Source: a virus. Taken from it: DNA of 64,000 nt. This document shows positions 1,148 through 32,752 of this stretch, piece after piece. A program made the translations under genes and the position numbers. How positions within the stretch are numbered: the stretch's first letter is position 1; each line of letters opens with the position of its first letter. A model generated the notes under the pieces. It did not search any database. It was not told where the DNA came from and saw only the letters and a program-made list of their open reading frames with translations. The stretch spans positions 3,925-67,924 of the IMG/VR virus record IMGVR_UViG_3300031463_000006; one strand, written 5' to 3'.

Positions 1148-2206
1148 TCATCCGGCCAGAAAGCCAGCGCAACCGATCCCAGGCATGAGCTGCCCTTGCC
1201 CCGGCACACCTGGCGGCTTCAACGTTGCGCTTGTGAATGCGCCGAATAGTGCAGCCGCAACGGCCGCATTGAGCGATGAATGCGCAGCAACTGATGCGCC
1301 AGGTGCAATACACGAAGCTGAAAATGCCGGATCAACAAACAACGCCGAAAGTGCATTCGGTGTAACAGGATTTGGAAGCGTTAACATAAGCAGCCCAAGC
1401 GTATTCATGATCTGCGCAAGCAGATTGCAGAATGCTTCGGTTGTCAAGACGTGTTCAACGGCCGTAATGATGCTTTGCCCTGCCGCCGTTACAGCGAACG
1501 TGCTTGGTACCTGAAGCACACTTTGTGGATTGCTTCCGCCACCATCACCAGAAAGTGTCAATTGTGCGTTGCCGATGGCGAGATTGAATCGCTTGGCATT
1601 CATGTCGAGTTGCAACACTATATCGCCATCGCCATTTTGAAAGCCGAACACGTCTGGCGACATTTGAAGCACGTTCTTTGCCGAGTCGCGCAACGTGACG
1701 TTGCCCTGTCCCGAAAGTAGCAAAAATGCTCCCGCGGCCGCGCTTCGTACCATGACCGAAGCTCCCGATTCGATCGTGAGCGCAGTGCGCGTGCGAAACA
1801 CGGCAAAGCTATTCTTCGTCGGGTCTGCGCCGGCAACGCTATCGAATGGGAAGGCGTCATAGGCATTGTTCAGCCGCGCGATGATGACGGCACCCGCACG
1901 AAAGTGTCCCTCTGGAATCGCAACCAGCACCTCGTCGCCTGGAACCAGCGGGAAAAAACACGCCTCGCCCGGGCCAGCGAAAAGTTGCCCTACGCGGCAA
2001 CGAATCGGCGTGTCGTAGGGCTTGAGCAACACGTTCGCGTATACCTGCCCGTCATCGCGATCAAACTCAATTGCTTGTTCGTCTTCACCGGCACCCGCTT
2101 CATCGACGACGCCATATGAGATCCAAACACGCGGATCGATGCCCGGTACAGCGAACGCTTGTGCCAGCGTTGTTTGATCGGTCTGTCGCCCCGTCGGAAA
2201 CATCAA
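1148..2206 (-). CDS. Baseplate spike protein (gpV/gp5 OB-fold-like)
   Basis: N-terminal 'G..FPLVPGDEVLVAIPEG...AVIIARL' is typical of gpV OB folds, followed by beta-rich repeats. Start overlaps the hub stop. Confidence 0.7.
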   Translation of the reverse strand: MMFPTGRQTDQTTLAQAFAVPGIDPRVWISYGVVDEAGAGEDEQAIEFDRDDGQVYANVLLKPYDTPIRCRVGQLFAGPGEACFFPLVPGDEVLVAIPEGHFRAGAVIIARLNNAYDAFPFDSVAGADPTKNSFAVFRTRTALTIESGASVMVRSAAAGAFLLLSGQGNVTLRDSAKNVLQMSPDVFGFQNGDGDIVLQLDMNAKRFNLAIGNAQLTLSGDGGGSNPQSVLQVPSTFAVTAAGQSIITAVEHVLTTEAFCNLLAQIMNTLGLLMLTLPNPVTPNALSALFVDPAFSASCIAPGASVAAHSSLNAAVAAALFGAFTSATLKPPGVPGQGQLMPGIGCAGFLAG

Positions 2207-4003: not shown

Positions 4004-5353
4004 CTACGGTGTATAAGGATATTGTTGACCAATTCCGTTCGGTAGCGTCGGATTCTGGGACAACGCCGGTTTGATTGGCGGCTTCGCCTTGCCAGCCTGT
4101 ATTGCTCCAATTCCCTTGTATGGCGGAATGATCAACACCTTGCCAACTGGCGGCGTTGCCGTCTTGAACGAAAGGTTGTTTGCATAAGCGATGTCAGCAG
4201 CTCCGTCAGGCATTCCGTAAAATCGCTGACTGATACCGATGAGCGTATCGCCAGGACGCACGATGTACACGTCGGTTTGCATTTGTTCGCCACCGGTGTG
4301 CTTGTGCGGTTTTTGATATGGCCCAAGATTCTTCGTGCCTTTGCCATCGATGCCGGTTCCAGCCCGTTGTGCTTGCGTCGCGCGGAATTGTTCCCGCGCA
4401 TTGCTTGCCTCGCGGGCAACGCGCATTGACGAATCCAAGCCACCCTTGAAGTAACTTGCTGTGCGAGTCAAGCTGCCGAGCCGTTGTTGCGTGTCGTAAT
4501 AATCTGGCGGGGTTCGCGTACAATCGTCGTAGAACTTTATTGCCGATTGTACAGCGGTTGTCGCAATATCAATTGCTTGGTTCGTAACCTCGAACGGCAA
4601 GTTTGCAGCTTTGCCGATCAAATCACCAAGTGTGCGAACACGATTGCTGATTCGGTTGCATGATTGCGCAAAATCTCGCATGAGCTTACTTGGCGCACTA
4701 AGCATTGCATCCAATTGCTCCAACGAGAACGTGTTTGCGCTTCGTGGAATTGTACGCCTTGTCAACTGAATCTGTGTGTTGTTTACAGATTCGTCTACTG
4801 CAAGCAGAACGAGATCAAGCGAGTTGAGTGACTGCGTTGCCGCACCATCGTTTCGAAGTGCAACGCGATCTTGTCCGAGTCCACGCCCAATCCAATCCCA
4901 CGTTACCTTCCAAACGATATCGTCAATGCGATCGTAAGCAAAATCCCAATCGCTTGCACGTCCTTGCCGACTGATTTGTTGCGGCGTAACAAATGGATTT
5001 TCGTTGTCAACGGCCCAAGTGACTTCGAGCAATACGCCGCTGCGAAAGATGTCCTCGAGCACAAGCGCGAGCGAATGCGCGAACGCGAGCTTCATCGAGG
5101 AACCGCCCTCTTCGTAGATCGCAGGCGACCTAACAAGGCGTGTCGTGTTCCATTCGCCGCTCCATTGCGATTGCGCTTCGATCGGCCCGATGACTTGTTG
5201 TGACGCTTGCGCAATGTTGCCGGGATACCACGTCGTAACAAGCCGTTGCTTGCCCGGCCAGTTTGCACCGCGTTTAGGCAATCCCGCGCCAACAAGCCGA
5301 AGCGTTCGTTTACGCCCGGCCAACTCCTTGATGATGATCTCGCTACTTGCCAC
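4004..5353 (-). CDS. Tail tube initiator / LysM-domain baseplate protein
   Basis: C-terminal LysM domain 'YIVRPGDTLIGISQRFYG...IAYANNL...VGKVLIIP'; downstream of the tape measure gene. Confidence 0.75.
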   Translation of the reverse strand: MASSEIIIKELAGRKRTLRLVGAGLPKRGANWPGKQRLVTTWYPGNIAQASQQVIGPIEAQSQWSGEWNTTRLVRSPAIYEEGGSSMKLAFAHSLALVLEDIFRSGVLLEVTWAVDNENPFVTPQQISRQGRASDWDFAYDRIDDIVWKVTWDWIGRGLGQDRVALRNDGAATQSLNSLDLVLLAVDESVNNTQIQLTRRTIPRSANTFSLEQLDAMLSAPSKLMRDFAQSCNRISNRVRTLGDLIGKAANLPFEVTNQAIDIATTAVQSAIKFYDDCTRTPPDYYDTQQRLGSLTRTASYFKGGLDSSMRVAREASNAREQFRATQAQRAGTGIDGKGTKNLGPYQKPHKHTGGEQMQTDVYIVRPGDTLIGISQRFYGMPDGAADIAYANNLSFKTATPPVGKVLIIPPYKGIGAIQAGKAKPPIKPALSQNPTLPNGIGQQYPYTP

Positions 5354-5430
5354 GCCACAAGTTTACATCGGGCAACGGCAAAGGCGAATAGCGACCGTGC
5401 TTCTTGTGAGCGGTCGCTGATACAGATGCG

Positions 5431-5979
5431 TCAGCGAATACGGCCTCGGCCGCCGACCATGTTTCGCGCCCAAGCTGCAAGCGGGGGCATGAGTGCACCT
5501 CGGCCACGGCCGCCTTTACCGCGACCCATTCGGCCACGTCCCGTGCCAGACGGCTTGTCGTCATCTTCGTCATCGTATTCGTCTTCGTCGTCGCCCTCGC
5601 CGCCGCGTTCGTCGTATTCGTCTTCGTCGTCGCCCTCGCCGCCGCGTTCGTCAAGCATATCGGAATCGCGATCACCTTCGGCACGGCCGCCTCGGCCACG
5701 ACCCATTCCTTCTCGCTTCTTTTCATCCTCATCATCGTCGAAGGATTCATCGTCAGGGCCTTCGCCAGAATGCGCATGCTCGGCTTCTTCTTCTTGCGCC
5801 CAATCGACAAGGGCGCCTTCGCCGCCCTTCTCGTCTTCAAGCGCAAGCCCACCGGACGCGGCATTCAAGGCGGCCATCGTGTCGTCGCCAAGTTGCTGTG
5901 GGTCGATTACGATTACATCGGGGTTTTCCGCCAGCTCGGGCGGGAGATTTTCGGGCAATCCGATGACGATAATTTTCAT
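5431..5979 (-). CDS. Acidic, RG-rich low-complexity protein with C-terminal PLAAWARNMVGG motif
   Basis: AGGAG RBS; D/E-rich tracts and GRG repeats. Confidence 0.65.
   Translation of the reverse strand: MKIIVIGLPENLPPELAENPDVIVIDPQQLGDDTMAALNAASGGLALEDEKGGEGALVDWAQEEEAEHAHSGEGPDDESFDDDEDEKKREGMGRGRGGRAEGDRDSDMLDERGGEGDDEDEYDERGGEGDDEDEYDDEDDDKPSGTGRGRMGRGKGGRGRGALMPPLAAWARNMVGGRGRIR
5573..5652. repeat. 39-bp tandem duplication encoding DERGGEGDDEDEY twice
   Basis: The unit tcgtattcgtcttcgtcgtcgccctcgccgccgcgttcg starts at 5573 and again at 5612. Confidence 0.9.
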
Positions 5980-6028
5980 GGTCGTTCTCCTAGGTTGAAA
6001 TTACCGCAACCAAGCGGCCTTGTGCAAG

Positions 6029-8041
6029 TCATCCGCCGAATGGCAACGCGGTCCGTGCCTGCAATCTGCTCTCGGCGGCTCGCGCAATATCACGCTGGAA
6101 AATAACGGCAATGCGATCGGGGTCTTGGTCGCGGAAATCTTGCTTGATTTGAAACACTTGTCCGCCGTTGAAAATATTGTTTGCAACCGGACCCTCGGTT
6201 TTCGCAGCCTTCTCTTGTTCGCCGAGCTTTGTCTTGACCTTATCAACGAAATCCTTTGCTCGGTCACCAATAATATCGGCAAGCTCTGCAAGTCCTTTGC
6301 TAATGTCATCGCCTCCTTGCAACAGCGCAATTTGCAATCGCTTGTTTCCGATAACAATCTGCGCCGCCGCTTCCATGGCAGCCTTGTTTCCCGCCGCGGA
6401 CACTTCGCTATAATTCTTCATGAATAGATCAAGAGCTTCCTGTGTTTGCCGTGCGGCTGCTACCTGATCTTCTTCACTTCGCGAAGCGATGTCGGACGGT
6501 ATACGATTCAAAAATGCTTCGGCGCGTTGCATATCGCGTGTTGCGTCTACAAGTGCTTTATGCTCGCGATATAGCGCATCGATGCGCTCGCCAACCGCGG
6601 CCGCATTCTGGCCAGCCGCTTCGGCTTCTTGAATTGCTTTCGCGCGAATGTAATCGTAATCCTTAGCTTGTTGTACGGATAGAACGTGATAATCCTTTGC
6701 AAGCCGTTCAAAGGCGCCAACTCGAGCCGTTACGTTTTCTTCGGCCATTCCTGCACTTGGGGTTAGGTGTCCGTGCGTTTCGTCGAGATACTTCGAGAAT
6801 TGCCAAACCGCCGCCGTTACAGCCCCAAGCGCAAGTGCGAACGCGCCAAGCGTTATTGCCATGCCTCCAAGTCCGGCCGCAGCTCCACTTGCAGCAATCC
6901 CAAGCTCCGGAATGCCCGTTTTGGCAAGCGTTGTTAGCGCCCGCCCAAATTCCAAGACACTCTTCGTTCCCTCAATTGCCGGCGTAGCTGCCTTCGTCGC
7001 TACAACACCAAGCGTAAGTGCAGTCTTATGCTCGATCGCAAAATCAATAACTGACTTTGCGAACTCAAATGCTTCCTTAATTGCGGCTTTAATTTCCTCG
7101 GCGTGCGATTGCACATATTTGAACCCCTCTTCGATTTTCTTCGCCGCCTCTGTAATCCATTCGCCCGCTTTCTCGCCAACCATCTTTGCATACTTCTCGA
7201 TGGCTCCGCGGTTCTCCATGATTTTATCGTACAAATTCTTGAAGGCCGGCGTTATAGCGCGCACCATCGGTTCTCCGATCATGCGCATAACGTCGGTTTT
7301 CATATCGTGCAGCATGTTACCCATGTCCTTCAAGGTCATGGGCATTTTCTTCGCGCGCTCCTGCATTTCTTTGAGCGCTTTCAACATTAAATTCAACATG
7401 CCTTGCCGACCCATCGTTTGTAGCCGCAAGGCAATTTGTTCATTGTGGCCTCGCATCAGGTTGGCTTGCTTCACCATTTCGATAAGCGGGTTTGACGCAC
7501 TAATGGTGTTCTTCTCGATCTCACCAAAGCCTTTCACAATATCGCCAACCGGGGCAGGAAGCGCGCGAGCTGCACTTGTTACCTTGCCCATCAGATCAAG
7601 AACCTGCTCCTTTGTGCGCGACGTGTTTGCACCGAGCTCGCTGAATGCCGCAACAATCTCGCCTCGAGCAACACCCGATTCGATGCTCATTTTACGAATT
7701 GTCTCGTAGGCATCCTTCGCGCGTTTGTCGAATCCTTCGAGGCCAACACCACGCTCGGCACTCATGCCAGCAATCGTTTTCGTTAGCGCGCGCATTTGTT
7801 CTTGGCCTTCCAAGGCTGCGCGCACTGCACCGGTTGCAATGTCTTGAATGCCGCCGACAATGTTGCCGATGTTTACGCCGATTGCCATCGCCGCGGTTTG
7901 CGAAGCGAACGCCAACACACGCGACTGCACCGTATTGACCGTAGCTTCAACCCGCTTGAACCCGCTCTGAATCTTGGCAAGCGTTGCACTCGCTAGATCA
8001 TCTAGCTTTAGCTCGGTTCGAACCTCGGTCTTAGCGGCCAT
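6029..8041 (-). CDS. Tape measure protein
   Basis: 670-aa Ala-rich helical protein after the tail chaperones; N-terminus 'ELKLDDLASATLAKI'. Confidence 0.75.
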   Translation of the reverse strand: MAAKTEVRTELKLDDLASATLAKIQSGFKRVEATVNTVQSRVLAFASQTAAMAIGVNIGNIVGGIQDIATGAVRAALEGQEQMRALTKTIAGMSAERGVGLEGFDKRAKDAYETIRKMSIESGVARGEIVAAFSELGANTSRTKEQVLDLMGKVTSAARALPAPVGDIVKGFGEIEKNTISASNPLIEMVKQANLMRGHNEQIALRLQTMGRQGMLNLMLKALKEMQERAKKMPMTLKDMGNMLHDMKTDVMRMIGEPMVRAITPAFKNLYDKIMENRGAIEKYAKMVGEKAGEWITEAAKKIEEGFKYVQSHAEEIKAAIKEAFEFAKSVIDFAIEHKTALTLGVVATKAATPAIEGTKSVLEFGRALTTLAKTGIPELGIAASGAAAGLGGMAITLGAFALALGAVTAAVWQFSKYLDETHGHLTPSAGMAEENVTARVGAFERLAKDYHVLSVQQAKDYDYIRAKAIQEAEAAGQNAAAVGERIDALYREHKALVDATRDMQRAEAFLNRIPSDIASRSEEDQVAAARQTQEALDLFMKNYSEVSAAGNKAAMEAAAQIVIGNKRLQIALLQGGDDISKGLAELADIIGDRAKDFVDKVKTKLGEQEKAAKTEGPVANNIFNGGQVFQIKQDFRDQDPDRIAVIFQRDIARAAESRLQARTALPFGG

Positions 8042-8402
8042 CGCTGTCTTTCTCGTATTGTTCGATTTGACGTTTCGCCGCGGCGTTCTCTTCTTGTAGT
8101 AGCTCAGCTAGCACAGCCACGTATTGACGCACCAATCGCCCGTCCATGTTCTCCCATTGCGTTACGGGTTGCCTCCCCCATCGCGCCAAGAACACGTGTC
8201 GGCGCAACCGTTGACGCTCGAGCTCGTCCGGGTCTAACGCCGATGCAATTGCCATCGCAAAGGTCGCATCAACATAGCGCGATCCCGTGCGGAGCACGAG
8301 TATTCGTAACTCGTGCTCCACAACATCGGGATCTTGTAGGTGCGCACCATCCTCTGTGTACCTTAGCCAGCCGTTCTTACTGCGACGCACTGCTCGAAAA
8401 AA
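8031..8402 (-). CDS. Tail assembly chaperone, frameshift extension (gpT-like part)
   Basis: Lies in the -1 frame relative to 8363..8899 and is entered through the slippery T TTT TTC at 8402-8396. Confidence 0.65.
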   Translation of the reverse strand, partial: FFRAVRRSKNGWLRYTEDGAHLQDPDVVEHELRILVLRTGSRYVDATFAMAIASALDPDELERQRLRRHVFLARWGRQPVTQWENMDGRLVRQYVAVLAELLQEENAAAKRQIEQYEKDSDGR

Positions 8403-8899
8403 TCACGCAGTTCCTCATCGCTCGCAAGATGCATTTGCGTGTAAACGCGCATGAGAATGTTGCGCCCTTTCGGCCCAATCTCGCGCCAAAATTCATCAAC
8501 CGACCCTGGCCCTCGAGGTTTACTCCAATCCACAACAACCCCATCCACGGCGCGCAACATTTGCTTCGAGTACTCGGCCGCTGCCCGGTTCGGCTTGCCA
8601 TCGCATCGATCGGCCGCGAGCTTTTCTTCTCCGTCGGTCAACGACCATGCGATGCACTGTCGATCGCCTTTCGATGGCGTGTCGGTAAGCGAAGCCGGGA
8701 ACCGCAAGAACACGATCTGCTTACCACGCGGCACCTTCAAGTGCTTCGGCATGATTACCCAATCGGGCACATCATCGCCTTGCGCTTCTGGGATCTTCGG
8801 AGCCGGCTTTACCGCTTCGGCAGATTCGGCTTCTGGTTCAACCGTCGCTTCGGGTTCTTCGTCAAGCACGATGCTCGACAATTTGCGTACATCCTCCAT
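8363..8899 (-). CDS. Tail assembly chaperone (gpG-like)
   Basis: GGGAGG RBS before the ATG at 8899 (MEDVRK); lies between tube and tape measure genes. Confidence 0.7.
   Translation of the reverse strand: MEDVRKLSSIVLDEEPEATVEPEAESAEAVKPAPKIPEAQGDDVPDWVIMPKHLKVPRGKQIVFLRFPASLTDTPSKGDRQCIAWSLTDGEEKLAADRCDGKPNRAAAEYSKQMLRAVDGVVVDWSKPRGPGSVDEFWREIGPKGRNILMRVYTQMHLASDEELRDFFEQCVAVRTAG
8396..8402 (-). other. Programmed -1 ribosomal frameshift site (T TTT TTC)
   Basis: In-frame GAT TTT TTC GAG; a -1 slip gives DFFRAVRRSKNGWLRY and joins the downstream ORF. Confidence 0.75.
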
Positions 8900-19202: not shown

Positions 19203-20030
19203 TTACCATTGATAGCCGAGACGTCGCGCCTCGGCTCGTGCTTCCTCCCTCGTCATGCTGTTTGGCAGACCAGGCTTGAATGTCTTGCCGCCGTTTGTTT
19301 GCGGCGACGCTTGATTCTGTGGCCTCGGCGGCGGCGTTGCTGCCCCTGCCGGTGCGCGTTGCTGACGACGTGCATTCGGCGATGCTGCAAGCGCTGGCTT
19401 GCGCTCAACATATCGCTGAAACCATCGTGCAACATCTTTCTCCGTGTAACGCGCCACCTCGCGTGGATCGCGCTGCGCGATATCTCGAGCAAATGCAATC
19501 GCTGCTTCCTCGAGATATAGCGGGTTGACATGTCGCGATGCAATGCGCTCAACAAAGCTCTGTTGTTCGCGCACGATCTCACGTTCCTTCGCTTGTGCAA
19601 GCTCGCTGCGATATCGAATCGCTTCCTGTCGAGCACGATCGCGTTCGTACTTCATACGCTCGATCTCGCTCATCTGTGCGAGCCGCGCCGCTTCGGCTTG
19701 CTTCTCCAGTTCCTCGGCCTTGCGAAGTCGCTCGCGAATAGCGGCAGCATCGTCGGTACCAAACACGTCTCGAAGCGCCGCTGCCTTTGCCCGTCGCAAG
19801 CGTTCGTTCAACTCCTCCGTCGAGAGTTGAAGGCGTTTACTGCCGCTAGATTGCCTCGAGGGTGCGACGGCAGGTTGTGTCGGCTGTGTTGGGGCAGGGG
19901 ACGGCGACGGGCTCGTTGTCGGGCCAACTGCGCCAACCGGCGCACCGCTAGGAACCGGTGCACTCGTACTAGTAGAGACGGGGGCCGCTGGCGTCCCAGC
20001 GGCAATGGAACCTGTATTCGGATCTGACAC
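19203..20030 (-). CDS. Capsid scaffolding protein
   Basis: Pro-rich N-terminus and a coiled coil ('QMSEIERMK'), immediately upstream of the capsid gene. Confidence 0.7.
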   Translation of the reverse strand: MSDPNTGSIAAGTPAAPVSTSTSAPVPSGAPVGAVGPTTSPSPSPAPTQPTQPAVAPSRQSSGSKRLQLSTEELNERLRRAKAAALRDVFGTDDAAAIRERLRKAEELEKQAEAARLAQMSEIERMKYERDRARQEAIRYRSELAQAKEREIVREQQSFVERIASRHVNPLYLEEAAIAFARDIAQRDPREVARYTEKDVARWFQRYVERKPALAASPNARRQQRAPAGAATPPPRPQNQASPQTNGGKTFKPGLPNSMTREEARAEARRLGYQW

Positions 20031-20061: not shown

Positions 20062-20739
20062 TCAGACGTACTCGCTCATGCTGTCAAGCATTGCACTAAC
20101 ATCAACGCTCGATGCCACGAGCAACTTGATGTGAGCACTCGTTACCCCATCTGCCGGTGCAAATGCAATCTGTGTTTTGCTTGTATTCAATGCGGCTTGT
20201 CCCGCAGCGACAGCCGTACCGGGCGACATAATGATCTTCGCTCCCGTTGCGGTTCCAGTCAACGCCGTTGCTTCCAGCAACATGACGGCGCCGATCATTG
20301 TAATGTTCGTCGGCAACGCCAAAATTCCCGTTGTAGGATCCACAGTAAAATCGAATTCTTCGACGTCACCCTTCTCGGGCAGATACATTACATCGACGTC
20401 CGTCCATGCATCCGCGCCCCATGTAACGATCTTACCATTTGGCGCGATTGCATATTCGCCAGATGCAGGCGGATAACTAGCCGACTTGTTGAGCATGCCG
20501 GGAACACCCGCACCTGCCCGTGCATAAACCGAAAACACGGTTGCCGCCGGTGCGAGATCTGATTGCTTTGTCAATACATGCACATTCGATGCAACAAACG
20601 CATTTGTTGCAGTGCCGCTCTTGCGCAATGCCGTCGGAAGTGCGCGAAGCACGTCGCCAAACTTCATCGCGCGAAGAATATCCGAAAGCGTATTCAGATC
20701 CGAACGATTGATGCTTTGTTGCTTGATCTCGTTGCTCAT
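20062..20739 (-). CDS. Putative head decoration/structural protein
   Basis: Ala/Thr/Gly beta-rich composition; lies in the head module; GGAG RBS. Confidence 0.45.
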   Translation of the reverse strand: MSNEIKQQSINRSDLNTLSDILRAMKFGDVLRALPTALRKSGTATNAFVASNVHVLTKQSDLAPAATVFSVYARAGAGVPGMLNKSASYPPASGEYAIAPNGKIVTWGADAWTDVDVMYLPEKGDVEEFDFTVDPTTGILALPTNITMIGAVMLLEATALTGTATGAKIIMSPGTAVAAGQAALNTSKTQIAFAPADGVTSAHIKLLVASSVDVSAMLDSMSEYV

Positions 20740-20747
20740 GTTTGCTC

Positions 20748-21164
20748 CTATTGCCCTGTAATCGCATACTCGATTGTTGCAGAACCTTGTGCTTCAAGTA
20801 AGATCAACGGCGACGCGGCGGGGAATTCTATTACCGCAAGCCCGTTGACGAACAACTCGCGTATCAGCGGAGGACCAGACGGATTTAGCGGATCGGTTTG
20901 CGACAATCGAAGCAACACTTGCGAATCGCTGCGAAAGTATAGCAAATCTCCCTTCGTTACCGTATCGTCAACGCCAACTCCACTTAGCACAGCGAATGCG
21001 GGAGCTGCAACATTCACTCGTCGTTGCAGAACGCCCGTCGCCGCGCTGAAAGGCTTTGGCGATGGCGTCGTGCCGAGCGTCGTCGTGAAGATCGCTTGCG
21101 GGAATCCGGCGCCAACCTGCACCGGGCCACCAAGCACTGTTCCAGCAATCGAAACTTGTCCCAC
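20748..21164 (-). CDS. Hypothetical structural protein
   Basis: Tightly packed co-directional ORF with GTG start. Confidence 0.55.
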   Translation of the reverse strand: MGQVSIAGTVLGGPVQVGAGFPQAIFTTTLGTTPSPKPFSAATGVLQRRVNVAAPAFAVLSGVGVDDTVTKGDLLYFRSDSQVLLRLSQTDPLNPSGPPLIRELFVNGLAVIEFPAASPLILLEAQGSATIEYAITGQ

Positions 21165-21166
21165 GA

Positions 21167-21529
21167 CTAGATCCCCTTGAACGGCTTACGGCCATCACCG
21201 ATAGAGCCGACGCCAATCAATGGAGCACGAGGCGAACCCGTCGGCACGTCAGCCAAAGGAACACGTTGCCCGCTTTGTTTGATCGTGCTTTCCGGATTTA
21301 GGTCCTCGGGCTCGCCGCTTTTCTGTGCACTCTTGCCACCCTTGGTGAAGTCGATCGGCGTTGCACCGGTTGGCCCTGTACCTACGGGGTTCGCGACGAA
21401 ATCGGCACCTGGCCCTCCAGGCGTTGCACCCGCGGGATTCTTCGTGAAGTCGTTGCCTGCCATCTTTCCATCTCCTGGTCCACCAAACGGATTGGTCTTC
21501 CCATCGCCCGTTGTCTTCCCATCACCCAT
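21167..21529 (-). CDS. Gly/Pro-rich small protein with repeated GDGK and DFxxNPxG motifs
   Basis: GAGG RBS; internal peptide repeats. Confidence 0.6.
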   Translation of the reverse strand: MGDGKTTGDGKTNPFGGPGDGKMAGNDFTKNPAGATPGGPGADFVANPVGTGPTGATPIDFTKGGKSAQKSGEPEDLNPESTIKQSGQRVPLADVPTGSPRAPLIGVGSIGDGRKPFKGI

Positions 21530-21891: not shown

Positions 21892-22620
21892 TCAAGGAAC
21901 GCCAGGCGGGATGTATAGGCTTTCTTCGTAGGGGTTATCATCGGGGATTCCGCCTTCGAAATCTGGCGGAACAATAGCACTTTCCTTCAATACAAGCCGT
22001 TCCAAATCGATCCATCCGCGAAGTATTCGATCGCCAATCTGTAACATACCATTGCTTGTATGCTGAAACTTTCGGTCGCGTTGCCTGCCATACGGTTGAC
22101 CGTAATCGTATGATCGCAACGTTGCGGTCGCAAGTTCAAAGTAAACAAAGATCATGATATGATCGCTATTGGGCGCGCTTCCGCTAATATGCAGCACGTC
22201 ACCGGGCTTTGGTAACGCACCTTCTTCGGCGCGAACATATCCAGGCGCATTGACAAGTCTCGATACATTTGCGCCGACCTTCCACGGCACAACGCCGCCA
22301 TCCCAATCGCGATTGATGATGCGCTCGTCGCGTACACCAAGACACATCAAAAGCCAGTTGCCCAAATCGCCGCAAGACGAATACGACACCTCGGGTGAAC
22401 CACACGCGCGCCGACGTTCGTTTTCTTTGCGCCTGTTCTCGGTAACCCAATCATACACGGGGTCGCCTACATCGCGACCCTTCTCGCCATTCACGGCGAA
22501 ACGCCCAAGTGCAACCGCCGCCGCTCGCAAAATGGTTGGATCAACAAGCAATGCGCTTGGCTTGCCTGCAAGAATCTCCGCAATTGGAGCTCCGGGTCGT
22601 TGAAGAAATACTCGTTTCAT
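21892..22620 (-). CDS. Putative CHAP/NlpC-P60-like Cys-His amidase/peptidase
   Basis: 'YSSCGDLGNWLL...PKPGDVL...DHIMIF' spacing resembles CHAP-like enzymes. Confidence 0.5.
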   Translation of the reverse strand: MKRVFLQRPGAPIAEILAGKPSALLVDPTILRAAAVALGRFAVNGEKGRDVGDPVYDWVTENRRKENERRRACGSPEVSYSSCGDLGNWLLMCLGVRDERIINRDWDGGVVPWKVGANVSRLVNAPGYVRAEEGALPKPGDVLHISGSAPNSDHIMIFVYFELATATLRSYDYGQPYGRQRDRKFQHTSNGMLQIGDRILRGWIDLERLVLKESAIVPPDFEGGIPDDNPYEESLYIPPGVP

Positions 22621-22629
22621 AGTTGGCTC

Positions 22630-23847
22630 CTATTGAGCTAATGCTATTGCGTCGGCGGCGCCTTCTCGCGTCAATGCACCGCCACCTCGTACTTTGCGCA
22701 ATCGATCTATTGCTTGCTGCATCGTAAGATGTTCTGGACCAAGTCGCATCGCCATCGCAGCAATAATCGCAGAACGATTCATACCGCGCAAACACGTTAC
22801 AAACACGCGCTTCCCAAGTGCTCGTTGTTCGTTTACCCATCGTGCCGCATCGCGTGCGATAAGTGCATCGCGCAAACTCACAGGATCGTCGTACATCGGA
22901 GCATGATACACTTCGACGCCAGGAAACTTCTCATCTGGCGCTTGATACTCAACTGCCGCAAGCACAATTGCATCAAAGTAACGACCGATCTCAACGCCCT
23001 TTGGCGGCGCAGATCCAACCCACAAGCCTTCGGCCACTTGCGCCGCGTCAAATGGCATCGGATGCGATTCGCGTTCTCGTTGCGGCAATCGTTGTCGGCG
23101 TGCAACACGAATCTGCGCTTGCGTTTCTTCAGGCGTCGGCCATGGCAATCCAACCGCCTGCACAACTTCGGGCGGTGCAACGGGTCGCGGCGCCGATATC
23201 CCGAGATCAAGCGCGTGTAGGTATTCGCTTGCAGCTCGCGCAAACTTCGCAATCGAATCGTAGTTCTCTTCGATTGCGCGTCGTTGTTCTGGCGACGTCG
23301 GCTTGTACACGGCATGCTGCCATTGCGCAAATGCGTCGGCATGCTTGGTTCGTAGCTGCACTTCCTTCGCCAACCCATCGTCATCGATCACCGTGACGTG
23401 TCGCGCTCGATAACCAATCTCATTTGGCGCGTCGAACATATCGTCATCGTCAACAACGTCGAACTCGTCATGCAGTACACGTGCGGCCGCATCCACATCA
23501 TCGAGCGTATCAACAACAACCGATGCGCCCGTTACATCCTCAAGCTTTTCGGGTTCGTCGTACTTGTCAGCACGACGCGGTAACTTCTCGAGCATCGAAT
23601 GCAACGTCTTGAGTCGCACGCCAACTTTGGCATCAGGAAACAACTCGCGCAGTCGGCGCAGAAATGCCTCGGCCGATTTCGCATGCTTGCGCTGCACTCG
23701 TTTGGCTTCATTTTCAAGCGTATCCGCATCGCCATCAAGCTCATCATCTTCGATTGCGCTGCGTACCTTGTTACGAGCAACATCAAGCTCACGGTCGGCA
23801 ATCTCGTCGGCCAATACACCACGCGCCCAAGTCGTTAGCTTGCTCAT
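22630..23847 (-). CDS. RelA/SpoT-like nucleotidyltransferase fused to a dual-specificity (CX5R) phosphatase
   Basis: 'RLKTLHSMLEKL', 'LEDVTGASVV', 'GYRARH' and 'EVQLRT' (SYNTH motifs); C-terminal 'VTCLRGMNRSA' with upstream 'PMYDDP'. Confidence 0.85.
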   Translation of the reverse strand: MSKLTTWARGVLADEIADRELDVARNKVRSAIEDDELDGDADTLENEAKRVQRKHAKSAEAFLRRLRELFPDAKVGVRLKTLHSMLEKLPRRADKYDEPEKLEDVTGASVVVDTLDDVDAAARVLHDEFDVVDDDDMFDAPNEIGYRARHVTVIDDDGLAKEVQLRTKHADAFAQWQHAVYKPTSPEQRRAIEENYDSIAKFARAASEYLHALDLGISAPRPVAPPEVVQAVGLPWPTPEETQAQIRVARRQRLPQRERESHPMPFDAAQVAEGLWVGSAPPKGVEIGRYFDAIVLAAVEYQAPDEKFPGVEVYHAPMYDDPVSLRDALIARDAARWVNEQRALGKRVFVTCLRGMNRSAIIAAMAMRLGPEHLTMQQAIDRLRKVRGGGALTREGAADAIALAQ

Positions 23848-24911
23848 GCGCTTTCCCTACCAAATCGGTTGAGCGGTACGGTCGTCATGGTCGAAAGGTC
23901 GCGCGGCGGAGGTGCGCCACGACGTCTTTCGCGTCGCCAGGCGGCTGCAACCTCGGCGTCGCTACGCCATCGAAGCTCATCAGGAATGGGCCATGCGATG
24001 CGATGCGGCACGACAACTTCGCGGTCATTCGGCCGATTCGGCGGGTGCTGGTAGTATCCGCCGGCCCATTGAAAAGCCTCGTCTGGACGTCGTATCTGTC
24101 CGTGCACCTGATAGCTATCCCAACTGGTTCTATCGTCGAACGTTGCGCTAAGGATCTTTACCACGTCGCCGAGTTCGTCGTCTGCCGCGCGGATGCTTTC
24201 CCATCCGCTTCGATTCAAAGCTCCCATCGTTTCCGTTCGCACGATGCGCTCGGCCCAATAGCGCGGCGCGCCTTGCAGAAACGGGCTTCGCTCAATCAAT
24301 TCGGCACGCACGTCACCCCACGGCTTTCCGGTTGCGATGCCAACCTGAAGCACCTTCTCGAACTCGCCGATGGTTGCCATGCTGTACCTCGAAAGCACAC
24401 CGCCCTCGCGCATAGGTTGCGGCGGCACGGCCTCGGTAACGTCTTCGTCGGGCGATTCCTGCGCCGCTTCGGCTTCCTTCTCGCGAGTCGCTAAGCGGCG
24501 TAGCACCGACGCTTCCGCACCCGACACCGCACGCGACAACATCGAGGCTTCCCGTAACCCAAGCGGGCGCGCGCGCGCGCCAAGTTCCTGATTGGCGCTT
24601 TGCAAGTAATCGTACATACCAAGCGCGCCAAGCTCGGCCGCTTTGCGTGCAGTCGTTGTTGTTGTGCGCCCAAGTCGTTGCGCAAGATCTCGCATTACTG
24701 CGCGAAGCTGCGTCAACGTAGCTTGCATTTGCGCAACGCTAGTTGGCGTTGCAGCTCCGGCGCGAACCGCAACGTCGAGCCGGTGCGCAAGATCTTGCGT
24801 CGCCCGCTGCAACAAGGCTTCGACTTCCTTGCGCCCAACACGATCTGCCAGCGCAAGCGCTTGTTCGCGATTCAGGCGAAGCACATCAGCCGCGCGGCCG
24901 AGCCGTGGCAT
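23844..24911 (-). CDS. MuF / SPP1 gp7-like head morphogenesis (minor capsid) protein
   Basis: 'AERIVRTETMGALN', 'DDRTS...HGQ' and 'HPPNRPNDR'; follows the portal; GGAGG before the ATG at 24911. Confidence 0.85.
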   Translation of the reverse strand: MPRLGRAADVLRLNREQALALADRVGRKEVEALLQRATQDLAHRLDVAVRAGAATPTSVAQMQATLTQLRAVMRDLAQRLGRTTTTTARKAAELGALGMYDYLQSANQELGARARPLGLREASMLSRAVSGAEASVLRRLATREKEAEAAQESPDEDVTEAVPPQPMREGGVLSRYSMATIGEFEKVLQVGIATGKPWGDVRAELIERSPFLQGAPRYWAERIVRTETMGALNRSGWESIRAADDELGDVVKILSATFDDRTSWDSYQVHGQIRRPDEAFQWAGGYYQHPPNRPNDREVVVPHRIAWPIPDELRWRSDAEVAAAWRRERRRGAPPPRDLSTMTTVPLNRFGRESA

Positions 24912-26895
24912 CGCTCGCCTCCGTCTCGCGTGCTGCATTGCGGCGGCGTTCGTCTTCGATGGCAGCTTTCTCGCGTTCGACCGCAATGCGCTCGCTTGCC
25001 TTTGCCATCGACAAGAACTCGGCCACGGTCATGTCGCCATCGGCGCCCTCCAACGGCGGCAATCCCATTCGTTCGCGCAGCTCGTTCACGCGCATCATGC
25101 CGACTTGCTTGAGGTCTGCTCCGCGATCCAATACGCGGCTCCAGTTGCTGCGCGGCAATGCATCGGGCGGTAGCTCATCTTGGCTGCTAACTCGGCCGCC
25201 CATGCCGCCCATGCCTTGCCCCGTGTCGCCAAACATTTGCGCTTGTGCGGCTTCCTTTTCCTTCTTCTCGCGTTGAATGCGCTCCCAATCCGCCCGAGGA
25301 TCGATGCGCACAATACGCGCAGCCAAATCGGCTCCGCTTTCCTGCGAAAGCAACGAGCCGCTCACAAGCTGCGTCAGCGTGGTTGCGGTCTGTTGCTGGT
25401 CCTGCGCCGTCGGCGTGAAGTAGTCACCCCAATCGAACACAAGCACATCGCTCTTCCCGGGACGTTGTTCCTCATATTCGGTTCGTGTTTCGCCGGTAGG
25501 CTCGCCCGTTGTTTCGTCACGCTCTGGTACCTCAACGGCTCGCGGCGGCAAGTCCAGATAGAAGGAGCGCTCAACCTCGTTGCCTTGTTCGTCTTGCACG
25601 ACGGTCACAAGCTCGAGCGCGCGCCGTGCGCTACGAATCATCTGTACTAGCAACTCGCGAATTCCACGCTCATATTGCTCGCGCAAGATGTCTGCTTTAC
25701 CGAGCATCGGCGCATAGATAACCTTGAGCGCAACGCTGCTTGTTCCCGCGGCTCCGATCTGATTCGGGTCGGGAACCACGCATTGTGCTACCTCGAGCGC
25801 ACTTTCGCGCATCTTCGTGAAAAGCTGCGTGCCGACTTGTACGCTGGTTCCCTGAAGCTCCATGTAGTGAGCATCGCCTGTTTGCCCAACCAGCAATGCG
25901 TTATCCGAACCTTTGCTGACACCGGTACGCGCAACGATATCAGGATCTAGTTTTAGGATAAGCGTAGGATCAAGGTTCAACGTTGTGCCGCGCACAAGCG
26001 TCGAATGCAGAATGTCGAGCGCATCAAATGTCTCGTAAAGCCCTTCGTAATCTGTCGAACCGTCGATTTCTTCACTGTGTTCGCTTGGCAGATTTTGGAT
26101 CCAAACAAAGTGTGTGAATCCATCGCCGTGCGAGTAAGTGTTTGCTTCGTCGACAACCCATTGCGGATCTAATGACGGTGTGAACAATTGCTCATGGAAC
26201 GCCACATCGGCAACGGGCGTCCAATCTCGTCTGAACCAGTACCAGTTTCGCACAAAGCGCTTCTTGTTTTCGTCCCATTCATCACGCGGGAATTTGTAGA
26301 TCTCCATGACGTGACGCGGAATCAACCGCTCACGATCTTCCCACTCGTGCACGTACAAGTGTTTCGCGTTGTGCGCTTGCACTACCGGACGTCCTTTCAC
26401 GAACCGCCACGACAAGCCGACAGTGCCAACCATGCCACCGATCGTGCGAGCTCGAATCATCAACGTGCGAAGTCCAGCCGCATCAGCAAGTGCACGCACA
26501 AATTCTTCGGTCGTTTGATCTCCAGGGCATCCGATGCTCGGCCATCGCTGGTAACCAAACACAAGATTCGTAAACGAATCGACGATGACACGAGCGAGTC
26601 GGTATGGTGCACTTGGACGTCGCAAGCGTAGCGGCACATACCACGGCGAAGGCTCGCCGCTTAGGTTCGGCTGCCCGAGTAACGGGTTACCTGCTGGAAT
26701 TGGACGGCCCTCGAAGTCAAACTGTTTCCAGTCGTGTTGCGTGCACGAGTAGTAACTCTGCTTTCGATCAAGCAGCTTGTAGCGCTCGGATTCGATGATG
26801 CTGCGAGCGCGAAACTGTGGGCCTAGTGTTGTTTGATCAAGGCCGAAGCTGGACGCCACGAACACGTCCTGGCCGAATGCATAGGCTTGGCTCAT
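24886..26895 (-). CDS. Portal protein (SPP1 gp6-like)
   Basis: 'LARVIVDSFTNLVFG', 'GSTDYEGL' and 'SSVALKVIY' patterns; position before the MuF gene. Confidence 0.85.
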   Translation of the reverse strand: MSQAYAFGQDVFVASSFGLDQTTLGPQFRARSIIESERYKLLDRKQSYYSCTQHDWKQFDFEGRPIPAGNPLLGQPNLSGEPSPWYVPLRLRRPSAPYRLARVIVDSFTNLVFGYQRWPSIGCPGDQTTEEFVRALADAAGLRTLMIRARTIGGMVGTVGLSWRFVKGRPVVQAHNAKHLYVHEWEDRERLIPRHVMEIYKFPRDEWDENKKRFVRNWYWFRRDWTPVADVAFHEQLFTPSLDPQWVVDEANTYSHGDGFTHFVWIQNLPSEHSEEIDGSTDYEGLYETFDALDILHSTLVRGTTLNLDPTLILKLDPDIVARTGVSKGSDNALLVGQTGDAHYMELQGTSVQVGTQLFTKMRESALEVAQCVVPDPNQIGAAGTSSVALKVIYAPMLGKADILREQYERGIRELLVQMIRSARRALELVTVVQDEQGNEVERSFYLDLPPRAVEVPERDETTGEPTGETRTEYEEQRPGKSDVLVFDWGDYFTPTAQDQQQTATTLTQLVSGSLLSQESGADLAARIVRIDPRADWERIQREKKEKEAAQAQMFGDTGQGMGGMGGRVSSQDELPPDALPRSNWSRVLDRGADLKQVGMMRVNELRERMGLPPLEGADGDMTVAEFLSMAKASERIAVEREKAAIEDERRRNAARETEASDATARPRG

Positions 26896-29980: not shown

Positions 29981-32752
29981 TTACCGCGCCATGAGCGATG
30001 CTGCCAAGCCCGGTCGCAATCCACCCGCACCTGCCGCATGCGATACACCGGCCGTCAGCCCCATGGCTCGTGCTTGTTCTCTTGCCAACCATGATGCCAT
30101 CAACACGTCATCAACGTGCGCATCAGGCTGATAATACAAACACGCATCAACCCATCGTTGCACATTTGGATGGCATCTTCCTGCGTGATCGCACGGAATA
30201 ATCCACGCGCCATTCTGAATCTCGACGAACAAACTTTCGACACCATATTCCGGGTGCGCTTTGTTTCTTCCAGTTGTGTGTGCTTTGATCGGCACACTCG
30301 CATTCTGCGCACGCGCAAACTGCAAGATATAATCTTGCGCGTTATGTACGATGTAATCTTCGACAACATACGATTCGTCTTCTTCAACGATCAAGTTGTA
30401 CACCGGACCATCATACTTCTCAACCACACCTGGTTCCGGTTGCAATATGCTCGCCCATACACCTTTGTCATCGATCGCAAACTTCGAGTTCGAAGCGTGT
30501 TTGCGAGTTACATACGGCGCCCATTGCACATCTTCGATCTCGCTCGTGAATGTTTCGCACAATCGAAACGCATCATCGGCGTACAACGAAAGCGTGTAAA
30601 TCGAACGATCGACAACGCCAGGCTTGATGTATCGATACGAGCTTTCATTATCCATTGTCAGCATCGCACGGCAACCAAATTCGAATAGCGTCGTTCGTGC
30701 AAACAATATCCAATTGCGCGATATACTGATGCCGGAAATCTCATGCAATAACATATTTGTCGAGCGCATACATCCGGCTCCCATGAGCCAACCGCGCACC
30801 ATTGCAAGTCGTTGTGCTAGCGGCCAGCCAAACAATGGGATCGGTGGACACTTTGCATCGCCAACACCGAACGCGCCAAACATGTCTGCAATTGCCGCAC
30901 CATCTACGCGGAAGACGAAATCGTCAATTTGTTCGCAGCTAGCGTTGCGAGTTATGTCGTACAACACCGAACGAACAAACTCTGCAAGATGCGACTCGTG
31001 TCGCCCGAATATAAATCGAACTTGATGATCTACAACTTCCCCTCGCGCCATGAATAGCCCAAGCAATAGCGCTTCGCGCTCACCAACAGACACGTCAACG
31101 CTGCCGACATGCAATACCGGGTCGACCGCTGGCCAACACGGAACCGCAAGCCCTGCATAGGCCGGGCGGTCACGTAGCCCAAGCGAAATCCATGTCGCCT
31201 CGCCAACCAGCCTACGATATTCCAACCCGTCGTGCTCGGCTTCGCGCAACCAGAACCAGTGATTCGGCGTCGTCACAACCGGCAAAGAACCATACGCTCG
31301 AGCCGTACAAACGGCGTGAGCAACACCGGCGACCCGTTCTAGGACTCGGCGCCAGCGGCCACGATGCGTCCACACCTCGGTGCCAGGCGTAACCAGTTCG
31401 ATGGGAACATAGCCGTTCTTCGTCAGCACGCGCGTTCCCGGAACAAAGCACGAATTGTTCTCAACCCGAGCAATCGATTTATATCGTTCGCACTTCTCGA
31501 TGATCTTGCGAACGATTGTAGGTGCATCCCATTGCCCGAACTCGACGTCGAGAATGAGCCGCTTCCCGTCGGGCAAACACTCGGCCGTGAACAACGCCGT
31601 CAAGTCGTGCTGCGCGCCTTTGCCTACCGCGAGGTCAACCCCGGTCACGGTAACGTTTGAGCCCGTGTACTCGCTAACCAGCGTGCGACCCTTGCCTTGC
31701 TCTTTACAACGCTCAATCCAATCGATCTTGCAACGAGCCGTTTCGTCGTTACGGCAGACGCACATATAAAGTTGATTATATCGATGCGGCAAGTGCTTTG
31801 TACGCAATCGTTCAATCTCATCCCAGTCATAGCGTTCTGGCCAAAGCGGCACGTTCTCGGTAATAACTTCGCCGCGTTCGTTGCGCGCCTCATTGTGCGC
31901 CGTCAATCTGTACACTTCGCCAGGGCGTGCACTCGGAACAATATCCGAACTATCCCAATCTGGGCAATTCGATAGCTTGATGTTGCCCTCAATATCCATG
32001 GTCAGTGTCGGCCAACCAGCGGCTTCCAATCGATATGTGATATCGTCGGGCGACCATGGCGTGTTCGTTACGACAAGTCTTCCTTTATGCGGATCGATAC
32101 GCGATAGCACCGATGAATCGAACCACTCATGAACCTTGTGCAACCCGGCTGTCGTACTCGTGTTCTCGCGGTCAAGTATGTCATCCACAACCGCCCATGA
32201 AAGACGGGACCCCGCGATTGCACCGTCAATGCCTACTGCCACAAGCGACGGGTCGCGAATTGCCGGAGGTCGATCAACCGTGATCTCCGTCTGCGTCCAA
32301 GGGTCGGTCTTACGAACCGATTTGCGTAGCCGAGGAAACACAAGCCGCAACTCATGGCTGGCTTCGATCAAGTCGCGCACCATAGCAAGCGGCTTCATGG
32401 CCTGACCTTGCGTCGCGCTAACCAAGGCACCGCGGCTTGCCGGGTCGCGCCCGAGAAAGTGCAACCCAAGTGTCGCCATGCAGAACGTCTTGCTTGTGCC
32501 GACCGGCATGCGCACAACACAGAACCTATGCGCCTCGACGAAATCAAACAACACTCGTTGATGCGGTGCAATTACAAGTTCCGCGTTTGTATGTTCTTCG
32601 CGCATCACGAAGCCAAAGAATTCTTTCACATCGGAACGTGCACGTTCAGCTACCCATTCAAGATGCGCAACAAGTAGCTCACTTTCTTCGATCGCTTTCG
32701 GATCGATGCCGACTCCTGCAACAATTTCTTGGTACCTATCGCCTTGCATCAT
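29981..32752 (-). CDS. terL: Terminase large subunit containing an intein
   Basis: Walker A-like 'MPVGTSKT', Walker B 'AVVDDILD', 'NTPWSPDD', 'LWPERY'; nuclease motifs 'GVDLAVG' and 'DDVLMA'. Confidence 0.92.
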   Translation of the reverse strand: MMQGDRYQEIVAGVGIDPKAIEESELLVAHLEWVAERARSDVKEFFGFVMREEHTNAELVIAPHQRVLFDFVEAHRFCVVRMPVGTSKTFCMATLGLHFLGRDPASRGALVSATQGQAMKPLAMVRDLIEASHELRLVFPRLRKSVRKTDPWTQTEITVDRPPAIRDPSLVAVGIDGAIAGSRLSWAVVDDILDRENTSTTAGLHKVHEWFDSSVLSRIDPHKGRLVVTNTPWSPDDITYRLEAAGWPTLTMDIEGNIKLSNCPDWDSSDIVPSARPGEVYRLTAHNEARNERGEVITENVPLWPERYDWDEIERLRTKHLPHRYNQLYMCVCRNDETARCKIDWIERCKEQGKGRTLVSEYTGSNVTVTGVDLAVGKGAQHDLTALFTAECLPDGKRLILDVEFGQWDAPTIVRKIIEKCERYKSIARVENNSCFVPGTRVLTKNGYVPIELVTPGTEVWTHRGRWRRVLERVAGVAHAVCTARAYGSLPVVTTPNHWFWLREAEHDGLEYRRLVGEATWISLGLRDRPAYAGLAVPCWPAVDPVLHVGSVDVSVGEREALLLGLFMARGEVVDHQVRFIFGRHESHLAEFVRSVLYDITRNASCEQIDDFVFRVDGAAIADMFGAFGVGDAKCPPIPLFGWPLAQRLAMVRGWLMGAGCMRSTNMLLHEISGISISRNWILFARTTLFEFGCRAMLTMDNESSYRYIKPGVVDRSIYTLSLYADDAFRLCETFTSEIEDVQWAPYVTRKHASNSKFAIDDKGVWASILQPEPGVVEKYDGPVYNLIVEEDESYVVEDYIVHNAQDYILQFARAQNASVPIKAHTTGRNKAHPEYGVESLFVEIQNGAWIIPCDHAGRCHPNVQRWVDACLYYQPDAHVDDVLMASWLAREQARAMGLTAGVSHAAGAGGLRPGLAASLMAR
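30341..31450 (-). mobile_element. Intein (370 aa) with degenerate LAGLIDADG homing endonuclease
   Basis: Starts CFVPGTRVLT; block B 'TTPNHWFW'; LAGLIDADG-like 'LLGLFMARG' and 'VRGWLMGAG'; ends 'VYNLIVEEDESYVVEDYIVHN'. Confidence 0.92.

Follow-up and report, generated by a model that had tools for sequence, protein, structure and literature searches.

What might a phage gene do that lies directly behind the gene for the head protein MuF and joins, on a single chain, a synthetase domain of the RelA/SpoT type to a cysteine-based phosphatase? We asked this question of a 64-kb stretch of viral DNA (the window), part of one linear record of 67,924 bp in IMG/VR (IMGVR_UViG_3300031463_000006) whose completeness is estimated by CheckV at 75%. 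The gene occupies 22630..23847 on the minus strand, which holds nearly all genes of the window and all features located below, and encodes a protein of 405 aa, called here the fusion protein. An earlier note on this DNA had read it as a small alarmone synthetase (SAS)-like domain fused to a CX5R phosphatase and had imagined an injected effector that adds and removes phosphates. We found that both domains and their motifs are present, that the fusion is conserved, and that it is an accessory gene in a place which holds variable cargo in related phages. Tentatively, we regard it as effector cargo of the MuF slot.

An AlphaFold2 model of the fusion protein (112 aligned sequences; mean pLDDT 93, pTM 0.66) begins with an N-terminal helical hairpin (aa 1-69, 23641..23847; helices 2-33 and 41-69), the second helix of which is kept in the wider Rel family. 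It continues with the RelA/SpoT-type, SAS-like synthetase domain (aa 70-235, 23143..23640; alpha/beta core at aa 74-232), a basic linker of lower confidence (aa 236-265, 23053..23142; pLDDT 63-85, net charge +2) and a compact alpha/beta domain, the Cys-based phosphatase of dual-specificity phosphatase (DSP) or protein tyrosine phosphatase (PTP) fold (aa 266-405, 22633..23052). Rel and phosphatase are two separately folded, apparently competent enzymes on one chain. No two-domain match was found in PDB, where every Foldseek match covered a single domain, or in BFVD, whose best match spanned 197 columns of Rel only; all NCBIfam matches were far under their cut-offs.

The synthetase domain was recognised by Pfam (RelA_SpoT, PF04607, aa 78-182; E = 1.8e-14, 54.4 bits against a cut-off of 27), and Foldseek comparison of its core returned RelP (6ewz) and RelQ (5ded) at E about 2.5e-8 with probability 1.00, with RelP, RelQ and CapRel all at E about 2-4e-8. 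For the C-terminal domain, the Pfam match to DSPc (PF00782, aa 333-388) reached 21.7 bits, under the cut-off of 33.5. Despite this, the phosphatase assignment was secured by phmmer matches of aa 285-395 to solved PTPs (ShufPTP, 9e9l, E = 2.5e-10; Tk-PTP, 5z59, E = 1.2e-9), by PHROG 10650 'dual specificity phosphatase' (E = 1.6e-6), and by fold comparison, in which Foldseek matched the domain to Tk-PTP (5z5a; target-normalised TM-score 0.81, rmsd 1.9) as well as to DUSP23, SDP-1 and PTPMT1. The two-domain composition proposed in the earlier note therefore held.

The phosphatase P-loop reads CLRGMNRS (aa 352-359, 22771..22794), with C352, R358 and S359 as its key residues. The general-acid Asp is D318, which aligned both to the Asp of the 'IPDF' loop in Tk-PTP and ShufPTP and to an invariant Asp of stand-alone relatives; all four residues matched invariant columns of 18 such relatives. 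In the P-loop of these 18 proteins the C, G, R and S were invariant and the T and N nearly so, and the hallmarks of the stand-alone family are LWxGSAPP, EYQ, the general-acid Asp and VTCxxGxNRS. The domain thus resembles small archaeal and atypical DSPs (Tk-PTP, 5z59; ShufPTP, 9e9l; DUSP23, 2img) in fold, CxxGxxRS P-loop and general-acid Asp, and differs from them in that Thr, not the usual His, precedes the catalytic C352, a trait found throughout its own DSP family. It is 36-52% identical to stand-alone phage DSPs (PHROG 10650), from which it differs in being joined to Rel and placed in a head module.

We then asked how widely the fusion occurs. When 1.84 billion representatives were searched exhaustively with HMMER, 1857 of them matched at E up to 1e-3, and the best 150 were inspected. 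Among these 150, the fusion was found in three clusters at 50% identity, two full-length and one truncated, and the DSP was carried by 3 of about 130 Rel-type representatives; a single-chain MuF-Rel-DSP protein was not present among them. P0001 (97% identity, full-length, both domains) represents the window's own 90%-identity cluster, which holds three more 405-aa copies on other contigs. P0002 (399 aa, 48% identity, aligned over 4-404) carries both domains on a 94.7-kb contig from a different assembly, and keeps both catalytic sets, namely the twelve synthetase residues named in the next paragraph and the phosphatase residues D318, C352, R358 and S359, while the linker is not conserved in pairwise alignment. 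P0003 (294 aa) enters the first phosphatase strands and then stops, P0004 is Rel only, and among stand-alone phosphatases P0006 comes nearest (52% identity). Because the same architecture occurs in the 48%-identical P0002 from a separate assembly, and in further copies, these comparisons indicate that the fusion is real and under selection and exclude the assembly artefact that the earlier note had raised as a concern. Pattern scans of IMG/VR, JGI metagenomes and GTDB genomes for the gene context of P0002, P0003, P0004 and P0006 returned no relative, and the only match among INPHARED phages was a Nitrososphaera provirus, for the Rel part only. In the alignment of 112 sequences (the window's protein and 111 relatives of at most 420 aa), RelA_SpoT was found in 94 and DSPc in 21.

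In the synthetase domain, syn1 (RxKxxxSxxxK; R78, K80, S84, K88), the Mg-binding Asp of syn2 (D104) and the catalytic ExQxRT of syn4 (E162, Q164, R166, T167) are present, and these residues together with G107, Y146 and H150 are invariant in 20 aligned relatives. Two positions are changed. In the syn2 motif DVTGAS (aa 104-109, 23521..23538), alignment to B. subtilis RelQ placed S109 on the Arg of DxxGxR, the replacement already seen in the earlier note; in syn3 (YxSxH, here YRARH) the Ser is replaced by A148. We compared 93 Rel domains, that is the query and those of the 111 relatives of at most 420 aa that have at least 120 domain residues. At the syn2 Arg position 80 domains had R, 4 had Q, 3 S, 3 T, 2 A and one M, and at the syn3 Ser position 75 had S, 15 A and 3 G; syn3 Ala was found in 9 out of 9 domains with neither R nor Q at the syn2 position. 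On the tree, the window's protein forms one clade with P0001, P0002, P0003 and P0004 (support 0.98), and the paired change recurs elsewhere, in P0019, P0108, P0119 and P0131. In RelP the Arg of DxxGxR stacks on the ATP adenine (PMC5794853), and the proven pppApp synthetase Apk2tox has 'RYT' at syn2, where RelA/SpoT homologues (RSH) have 'AVR' (PMC12226406). Given the clade-wide pairing, its recurrence in other lineages and, if RYT maps onto this position, the Apk2tox precedent, we read the syn2/syn3 change as a probable shift in specificity and not as decay. Of the motifs, syn4 resembles that of RSH, syn2 does not, and syn3 stands in between; judged by these motifs, the choice of product, be it (p)ppGpp, (p)ppApp or another, is not readable.

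RelQ and RelP (5ded, 6ewz, 6fgk) are the closest solved sequences and folds. The fusion protein has the same syn1, syn4 and Mg-binding residues, and differs from them in the syn2 Arg-to-Ser and syn3 Ser-to-Ala changes, the head-module context, the extra N-terminal hairpin and the fused phosphatase. The Rel family profile matched RelP/RelQ structures at E = 6.5e-25, CapRel (7ztb) at 1.3e-11 and FaRel2 (8pu3) at about 3e-10, and Tas1 was not among the best 60 of its 84 matches (E up to 1). The Rel domain is also acidic (net charge -13, isoelectric point (pI) 4.8); the five Rel domains of the fusion clade range from -12 to -26, against a family median pI of 8.6. On these two grounds, the nearer RelP/RelQ profile and the strong acidity, each of them weak, the synthetase probably acts on nucleotides rather than on tRNA.

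The genomic context gave the strongest evidence for accessory cargo in a MuF effector slot. A search of IMG/VR with a profile of MuF orthologues yielded 121 relatives, and 80 loci (38-66% identity) were retained; their open reading frames (ORFs) were called as the longest ORF in a greedy manner, some calls being wrong in GC-rich DNA, and compared with the window proteins by phmmer. The head module proved conserved, with homologues of MuF in 79 of the 80 kin loci, of the portal, directly upstream of MuF, in 78, of the window genes 20062-20739 and 20748-21164 in 68 and 67, of the scaffold-like gene 19203-20030 in 65, and of the major capsid protein in 41. The fusion gene had a homologue in one locus only, L100, where a 320-aa Rel protein without the phosphatase is encoded behind the capsid gene. 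The neighbouring ORF at 21892-22620 likewise had a homologue in 1 of the 80. The distance from the MuF stop to the 20748-21164 gene is 2680 bp in the window, compared with at most 1351 bp in 61 of the 67 kin loci that have this gene.

Other kin phages hold toxin domains in the same place. C-terminal extensions of at least 150 aa were present in 21 of the 79 MuF orthologues, 20 of them reaching at least 400 aa, and among ten extended MuF ORFs that were scanned an ADP-ribosyltransferase domain was detected in three, with no Pfam match in the other extensions, which may hold effector domains of new kinds. Some MuF homologues have HExxH metallopeptidase-like tails or ParB-like inserts. In L165, a Zeta-toxin/AAA_33 kinase gene (4587-5519, plus strand; E = 3.4e-22) starts 10 nt past MuF, as a separate ORF in the same post-MuF slot. 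The position right after MuF, whether fused or separate, is thus a variable cargo slot in this phage group, and the statement in the earlier note that MuF neighbourhoods carry toxins or effectors was borne out. Our reading of the fusion gene as cargo of this slot follows from the conserved head module, the rarity of the fusion gene and the adjoining ORF, and the toxin domains in the kin slot.

Loci with extended MuF include L091, L092, L101, L113, L119, L133, L138 and L148-L153, and also L157, L158, L160 and L166, among others, with extensions of 400-800 aa.

The two halves of the protein have different surroundings elsewhere. All 39 Rel relatives longer than 420 aa contained RelA_SpoT, fused to a portal in seven, to InPase in two and to a Zeta toxin in two, with single cases of LPD1, ddrB-ParB, MuF, ADP-ribosyltransferase and HAD. 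In nine IMG/VR Rel loci (eight distinct), the domain forms the C-terminal part of proteins 286-988 aa long, and PHROG matches among 60 neighbouring ORFs included portal, head-morphogenesis, minor-head/DNA-pilot and protease genes, and phosphohydrolase twice; MuF adjoins Rel in L089. In the Nitrososphaera provirus Pro-Nvie1 (L001, FR725450.1), the Rel-like gene 6 (5813-6445) comes right after the portal gene 5, so that a portal-linked Rel module is found in an archaeal virus as well. The Rel family is therefore a phage head-module family, linked to the virion.

For the stand-alone phosphatases, a scan of IMG/VR gave 92 relatives, of which 80 loci were kept. None of the 80 had a Rel domain within 6 kb, and conversely no DSP lay within 7 kb of Rel in the nine IMG/VR Rel loci. 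A recognisable MuF was found in 2 of the 30 DSP records searched for it, in each about 14 kb from the DSP. Among the neighbours (131 of 244 ORFs scanned) were sigma factors, UDG, DNA polymerase A, RuvB and gp32, and no head gene was among the 25 commonest families. With non-structural surroundings and no Rel, the phosphatase is thus a phage protein in its own right, encoded apart from the virion genes.

As to other features of the Rel family, members of its wider circle (P0005, P0007, P0010, P0011, P0014, P0016 and P0027) have a C-terminal two-Cys motif, PPCPPxVxxxFGC, and upstream a short motif, PVGTxRxWxxGxYxKxxxGW. The fusion clade has neither the two Cys (its sequence there is APPEVVQAVGLPWP) nor the N-terminal motif.

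Taken together, we consider the best explanation, with a chance that we put at slightly less than even, to be an accessory effector cargo of the MuF slot, in effect a split version of a MuF polymorphic toxin or polyvalent protein with independent heads, in an uncultured tailed phage. Late in infection the fusion protein would be synthesised along with MuF, to travel with the virion or inside the head and be set free in the next cell. In that cell the synthetase would transfer pyrophosphate from ATP onto the 3' position of a purine nucleotide, giving a (p)ppGpp- or (p)ppApp-like alarmone, and so impose an alarmone or ATP-drain shock on the infected cell. The phosphatase would be a second effector that acts independently, as it does in most other phages, a reading favoured by the lack of co-occurrence of DSP and Rel in both sets of loci. 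In this scheme we infer that the protein is packaged and injected, which nucleotide it makes, what the phosphatase acts on and that the heads are independent, and a role against defence signalling, also put forward in the earlier note, would be purely speculative.

Several points weigh against this explanation. The fusion protein is on a separate chain from MuF, which leaves its packaging conjectural. The ATGA overlap between the two genes (23844..23847; fusion ATG 23847-23845, MuF TGA 23846-23844), described in the earlier note, is real, but by our crude ORF calls a 4-nt overlap is shared by 10 of the 44 neighbouring ORF pairs on the minus strand of the window, in eight cases as ATGA, so the overlap is generic in this genome and amounts to ordinary operon coupling, no more. 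Stand-alone DSPs among replication and transcription genes indicate that the phosphatase is not a virion protein by nature. The Arg lost from syn2 is the one that stacks on the ATP adenine, so that donor binding would be altered, and activity is unproven. An injected enzyme that drains ATP would also harm the replication of the phage itself. No immunity gene was seen; HD_4, HD, MazG and NUDIX are all absent from the record, which is only 75% complete, and the ORF calls at the loci are crude.

The absence of an immunity gene would fit an alternative in which the two domains form a built-in pair of synthetase and hydrolase, which is possible and which we doubt. Here the PTP-fold domain would act on the Rel product, either (p)ppNpp or pyrophosphorylated tRNA, trimming or destroying 3'- or 5'-terminal phosphates in place of an HD-type hydrolase such as Aph1 or the small alarmone hydrolases (SAHs), and could serve as an antitoxin in cis, as a limiter, or as a route to a different nucleotide such as ppGp. 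Cys-phosphatases are able to cut terminal phosphates of pyrophosphate-bearing substrates, as RNA 5'-triphosphatases and inositol-pyrophosphate phosphatases do. It is well established that a toxic SAS (toxSAS) can be accompanied by an enzyme that removes what it makes, and the SAHs of phages, as type-IV antitoxins, neutralise all tested toxSASs (Jimmy et al, 2020, PMC7229694); Apk2 toxins are likewise followed by a gene for the Aph1 hydrolase (PMC12226406). Unlike in the toxSAS/SAH systems, the partner here is a PTP-fold Cys-phosphatase instead of an HD hydrolase, and it is fused instead of being a separate gene. Our own data add that HD_4 hydrolase genes lie by Rel in two of the eight distinct IMG/VR Rel loci, in L086 directly downstream (1782-2261, plus strand; 10 neighbours scanned singly) and in L088 one ORF away (7833-8474, minus strand), where they are probably Aph1/SAH-like antidotes, while the window's record has none of the four hydrolase families; that InPase (two cases) and HAD (one) share a chain with Rel among the 39 long relatives; and that the fusion clade bears its own paired active-site changes and keeps both active sites at 48% identity.

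Against a built-in pair stand the same absence of co-occurrence, 0 of 80 and 0 of 9 loci, and the low share of Rel-type representatives with a DSP, 3 of about 130. A monoesterase would take off a single phosphate and not the entire 3'-pyrophosphate, an antidote linked covalently would be active in the target cell as well, and the model, with pTM 0.66 at pLDDT 93, has no confident inter-domain packing. The idea of the earlier note that the protein adds and removes the same phosphates is, accordingly, one possibility and not the default. A stronger form of the same idea, in which the Cys-phosphatase replaces the HD hydrolase and yields a non-homologous bifunctional 'Rel' with a retuned ATP/acceptor pocket, carried as phage-head cargo of the MuF slot, seems to us rather unlikely; such an enzyme could make a non-canonical nucleotide of the ppGp or pGp type, or act as a self-limiting pulse generator for host shut-off.

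We give a low chance to a third explanation, that the fusion protein is a late or accessory enzyme which stays in the cell in which it is made, for host shutdown or superinfection exclusion, the MuF site being merely permissive. The gene is a lineage-specific insertion, its ATGA coupling is generic, the stand-alone DSPs sit among non-structural genes, and in PADLOC the Rel domain has a match to PDC-S33, a defence candidate (E = 1.8e-11); a precedent is the prophage PhRel Gp29, a phage SAS used against other phages (PMC7229694). Cargo of the slot is nevertheless preferred over an enzyme that is not packaged, as kin phages hold ADP-ribosyltransferase domains covalently fused to MuF in the same slot, 7 of the 39 long Rel relatives are fused to a portal, and the record, at 75% completeness, showed neither an antitoxin-like partner nor a tyrosine integrase.

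It is quite improbable, in our judgement, that the fusion protein is a tRNA-directed toxin whose Rel domain pyrophosphorylates the tRNA 3'-CCA in the manner of FaRel2, CapRel and PhRel2 and whose phosphatase acts on RNA ends. ToxSASs that target tRNA are reportedly the subject of work by Kurata in 2021. The profile and fold matches to CapRel and FaRel2 given above would agree with such a role, as would a weak similarity of the DSP to the polynucleotide 5'-phosphatase 1yn9 (E = 0.11), but the family is far nearer to RelP/RelQ, the Rel domains of the clade are strongly acidic in a family of basic median pI, and the gene arrangement of a toxin-antitoxin system is missing. That the synthetase is a dead scaffold and only the phosphatase works is scarcely credible, for although S109 and A148 replace residues kept in 80 and 75 of the 93 domains and the replaced Arg stacks on ATP in RelP (PMC5794853), the remaining catalytic residues are invariant in the clade at 40-48% identity, the paired change recurs in other lineages, and an active pppApp synthetase also does without this Arg (PMC12226406).

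Set against known systems, the fusion protein comes close to the Apk2, or MuF-RelA_SpoT, toxins of S. pneumoniae SPNA45, M. haemolytica and P. multocida, which are polymorphic toxins of temperate phages (PMC12226406); the MuF polymorphic-toxin theme also appears in PMC11806420. Like Apk2, it brings a pyrophosphokinase of the RelA/SpoT type into association with MuF within the head module, reads as toxin-like cargo, and lacks the RSH-type syn2 Arg. Unlike Apk2, MuF and the enzyme are here separate ORFs and not one polypeptide, a Cys-phosphatase is joined to the C-terminus, and no iapK- or aph1-like genes follow downstream in this 75%-complete record, where the neighbour is a CHAP-like ORF. Its syn motifs differ as well, being GAS / AxH / LR where Apk2, if its three-letter signatures are mapped rightly onto the syn positions described above, has RYT / GxN / YH. 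Going by its sequence, the protein belongs to the RelA/SpoT synthetase and Cys-phosphatase superfamilies and falls outside Apk2. Nor is it arranged like the toxSAS toxin-antitoxin systems FaRel2, CapRel and PhRel, there being no two- or three-gene operon with an antitoxin and its neighbours being MuF and the CHAP-like ORF.

Polyvalent proteins, which carry multiple effector domains per chain beside portal or MuF, have been proposed to be packaged and injected, and RelA/SpoT is one of their listed modules (Iyer et al, 2017, PMC5512222). The fusion protein likewise has at least two effector domains on one chain encoded in the portal/MuF head module, and relatives of its Rel domain carry LPD1, ddrB-ParB, InPase, ADP-ribosyltransferase, Zeta and portal domains; it differs from polyvalent proteins in having only two domains in 405 aa. 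Neither 'dsp' at the start of a word nor 'phosphatase' occurs in the text of Iyer et al (PMC5512222), and 'phosphatase' does not occur in that of Jimmy et al (PMC7229694), although the supplementary tables of both may list the pairing. A limited literature search gave no description of a Rel+DSP protein, with the same proviso for the supplementary tables of the cited papers.

As MuF-linked RelA/SpoT toxins and RelA/SpoT modules in polyvalent proteins are already known, the kind of element is not new. What is new is the Cys-phosphatase as a fused partner of the synthetase, and the arrangement, a cargo gene split off from MuF but coupled to it in translation, in a slot that is taken in sister phages by ADP-ribosyltransferase or Zeta-toxin domains. 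Should the phosphatase act on the product of the synthetase, this would be the first alarmone system with a PTP-fold hydrolase and a possible source of a new signalling nucleotide. Should it not, the locus would be a clean natural case of effector-cargo swapping at MuF, and also a handle on the roles of the widespread stand-alone phage DSPs.

The MuF gene itself (23844..24986; PF04233, PHROG head morphogenesis) scored 28.9 bits for PF04233, just short of the cut-off of 29.6, and has 497 homologues, mostly of 340-360 aa and many with a precomputed PF04233 match. Its listed ORF (380 aa, TTG start) is probably 25 codons overlong, the true start being Met26 at 24911, which gives 355 aa; close homologues are 355 aa long and start at the Met encoded at nt 24911. 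The portal gene (24886..26895; PHROG 64 portal, E = 1.6e-6) lies directly upstream of it. The purine-rich AGGGAAAG sits 4 nt 5' of the fusion ATG. A MuF-Rel fusion by -1 frameshift was considered and rejected, as a TAG lies four codons before the Rel ATG and there is no canonical slippery site; a GGGAAAG heptamer is in the register of the Rel frame and not of the MuF frame. Prediction of a complex of MuF and the fusion protein scored 0.00 in both runs (mark 0.32; no controls) and weighs neither way.

Directly downstream of the fusion gene lies the CHAP/NlpC-P60-like ORF of 242 aa (21892..22620). It had no Pfam or PHROG match, and its CHAP-like character, which is a lead only, comes from ESM Atlas features, with CHAP clusters in 24 of 30 matches (score 0.96) and a Cys...His arrangement. 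This ORF and the fusion gene look like one co-inserted two-gene cassette, and the ORF may encode a cell-wall hydrolase associated with the virion. The cassette is separated from the conserved head genes by a small Gly/Pro-rich ORF (21167-21529) with GDGKT and PGG-type repeats, a homologue of which was detectable in only 18 of the 80 kin loci. MuF relatives also occur in metagenome-assembled genomes labelled as Bifidobacteriaceae, Methylocystis, Armatimonadetes, Polyangiaceae and Deltaproteobacteria; because binning of phage contigs is unreliable, we claim no host. Finally, a 923-aa ORF of the window (29981-32752) has a homologue (E = 1e-92) at 2781-4514 of L016, an unrelated viral contig that bears a DSP.

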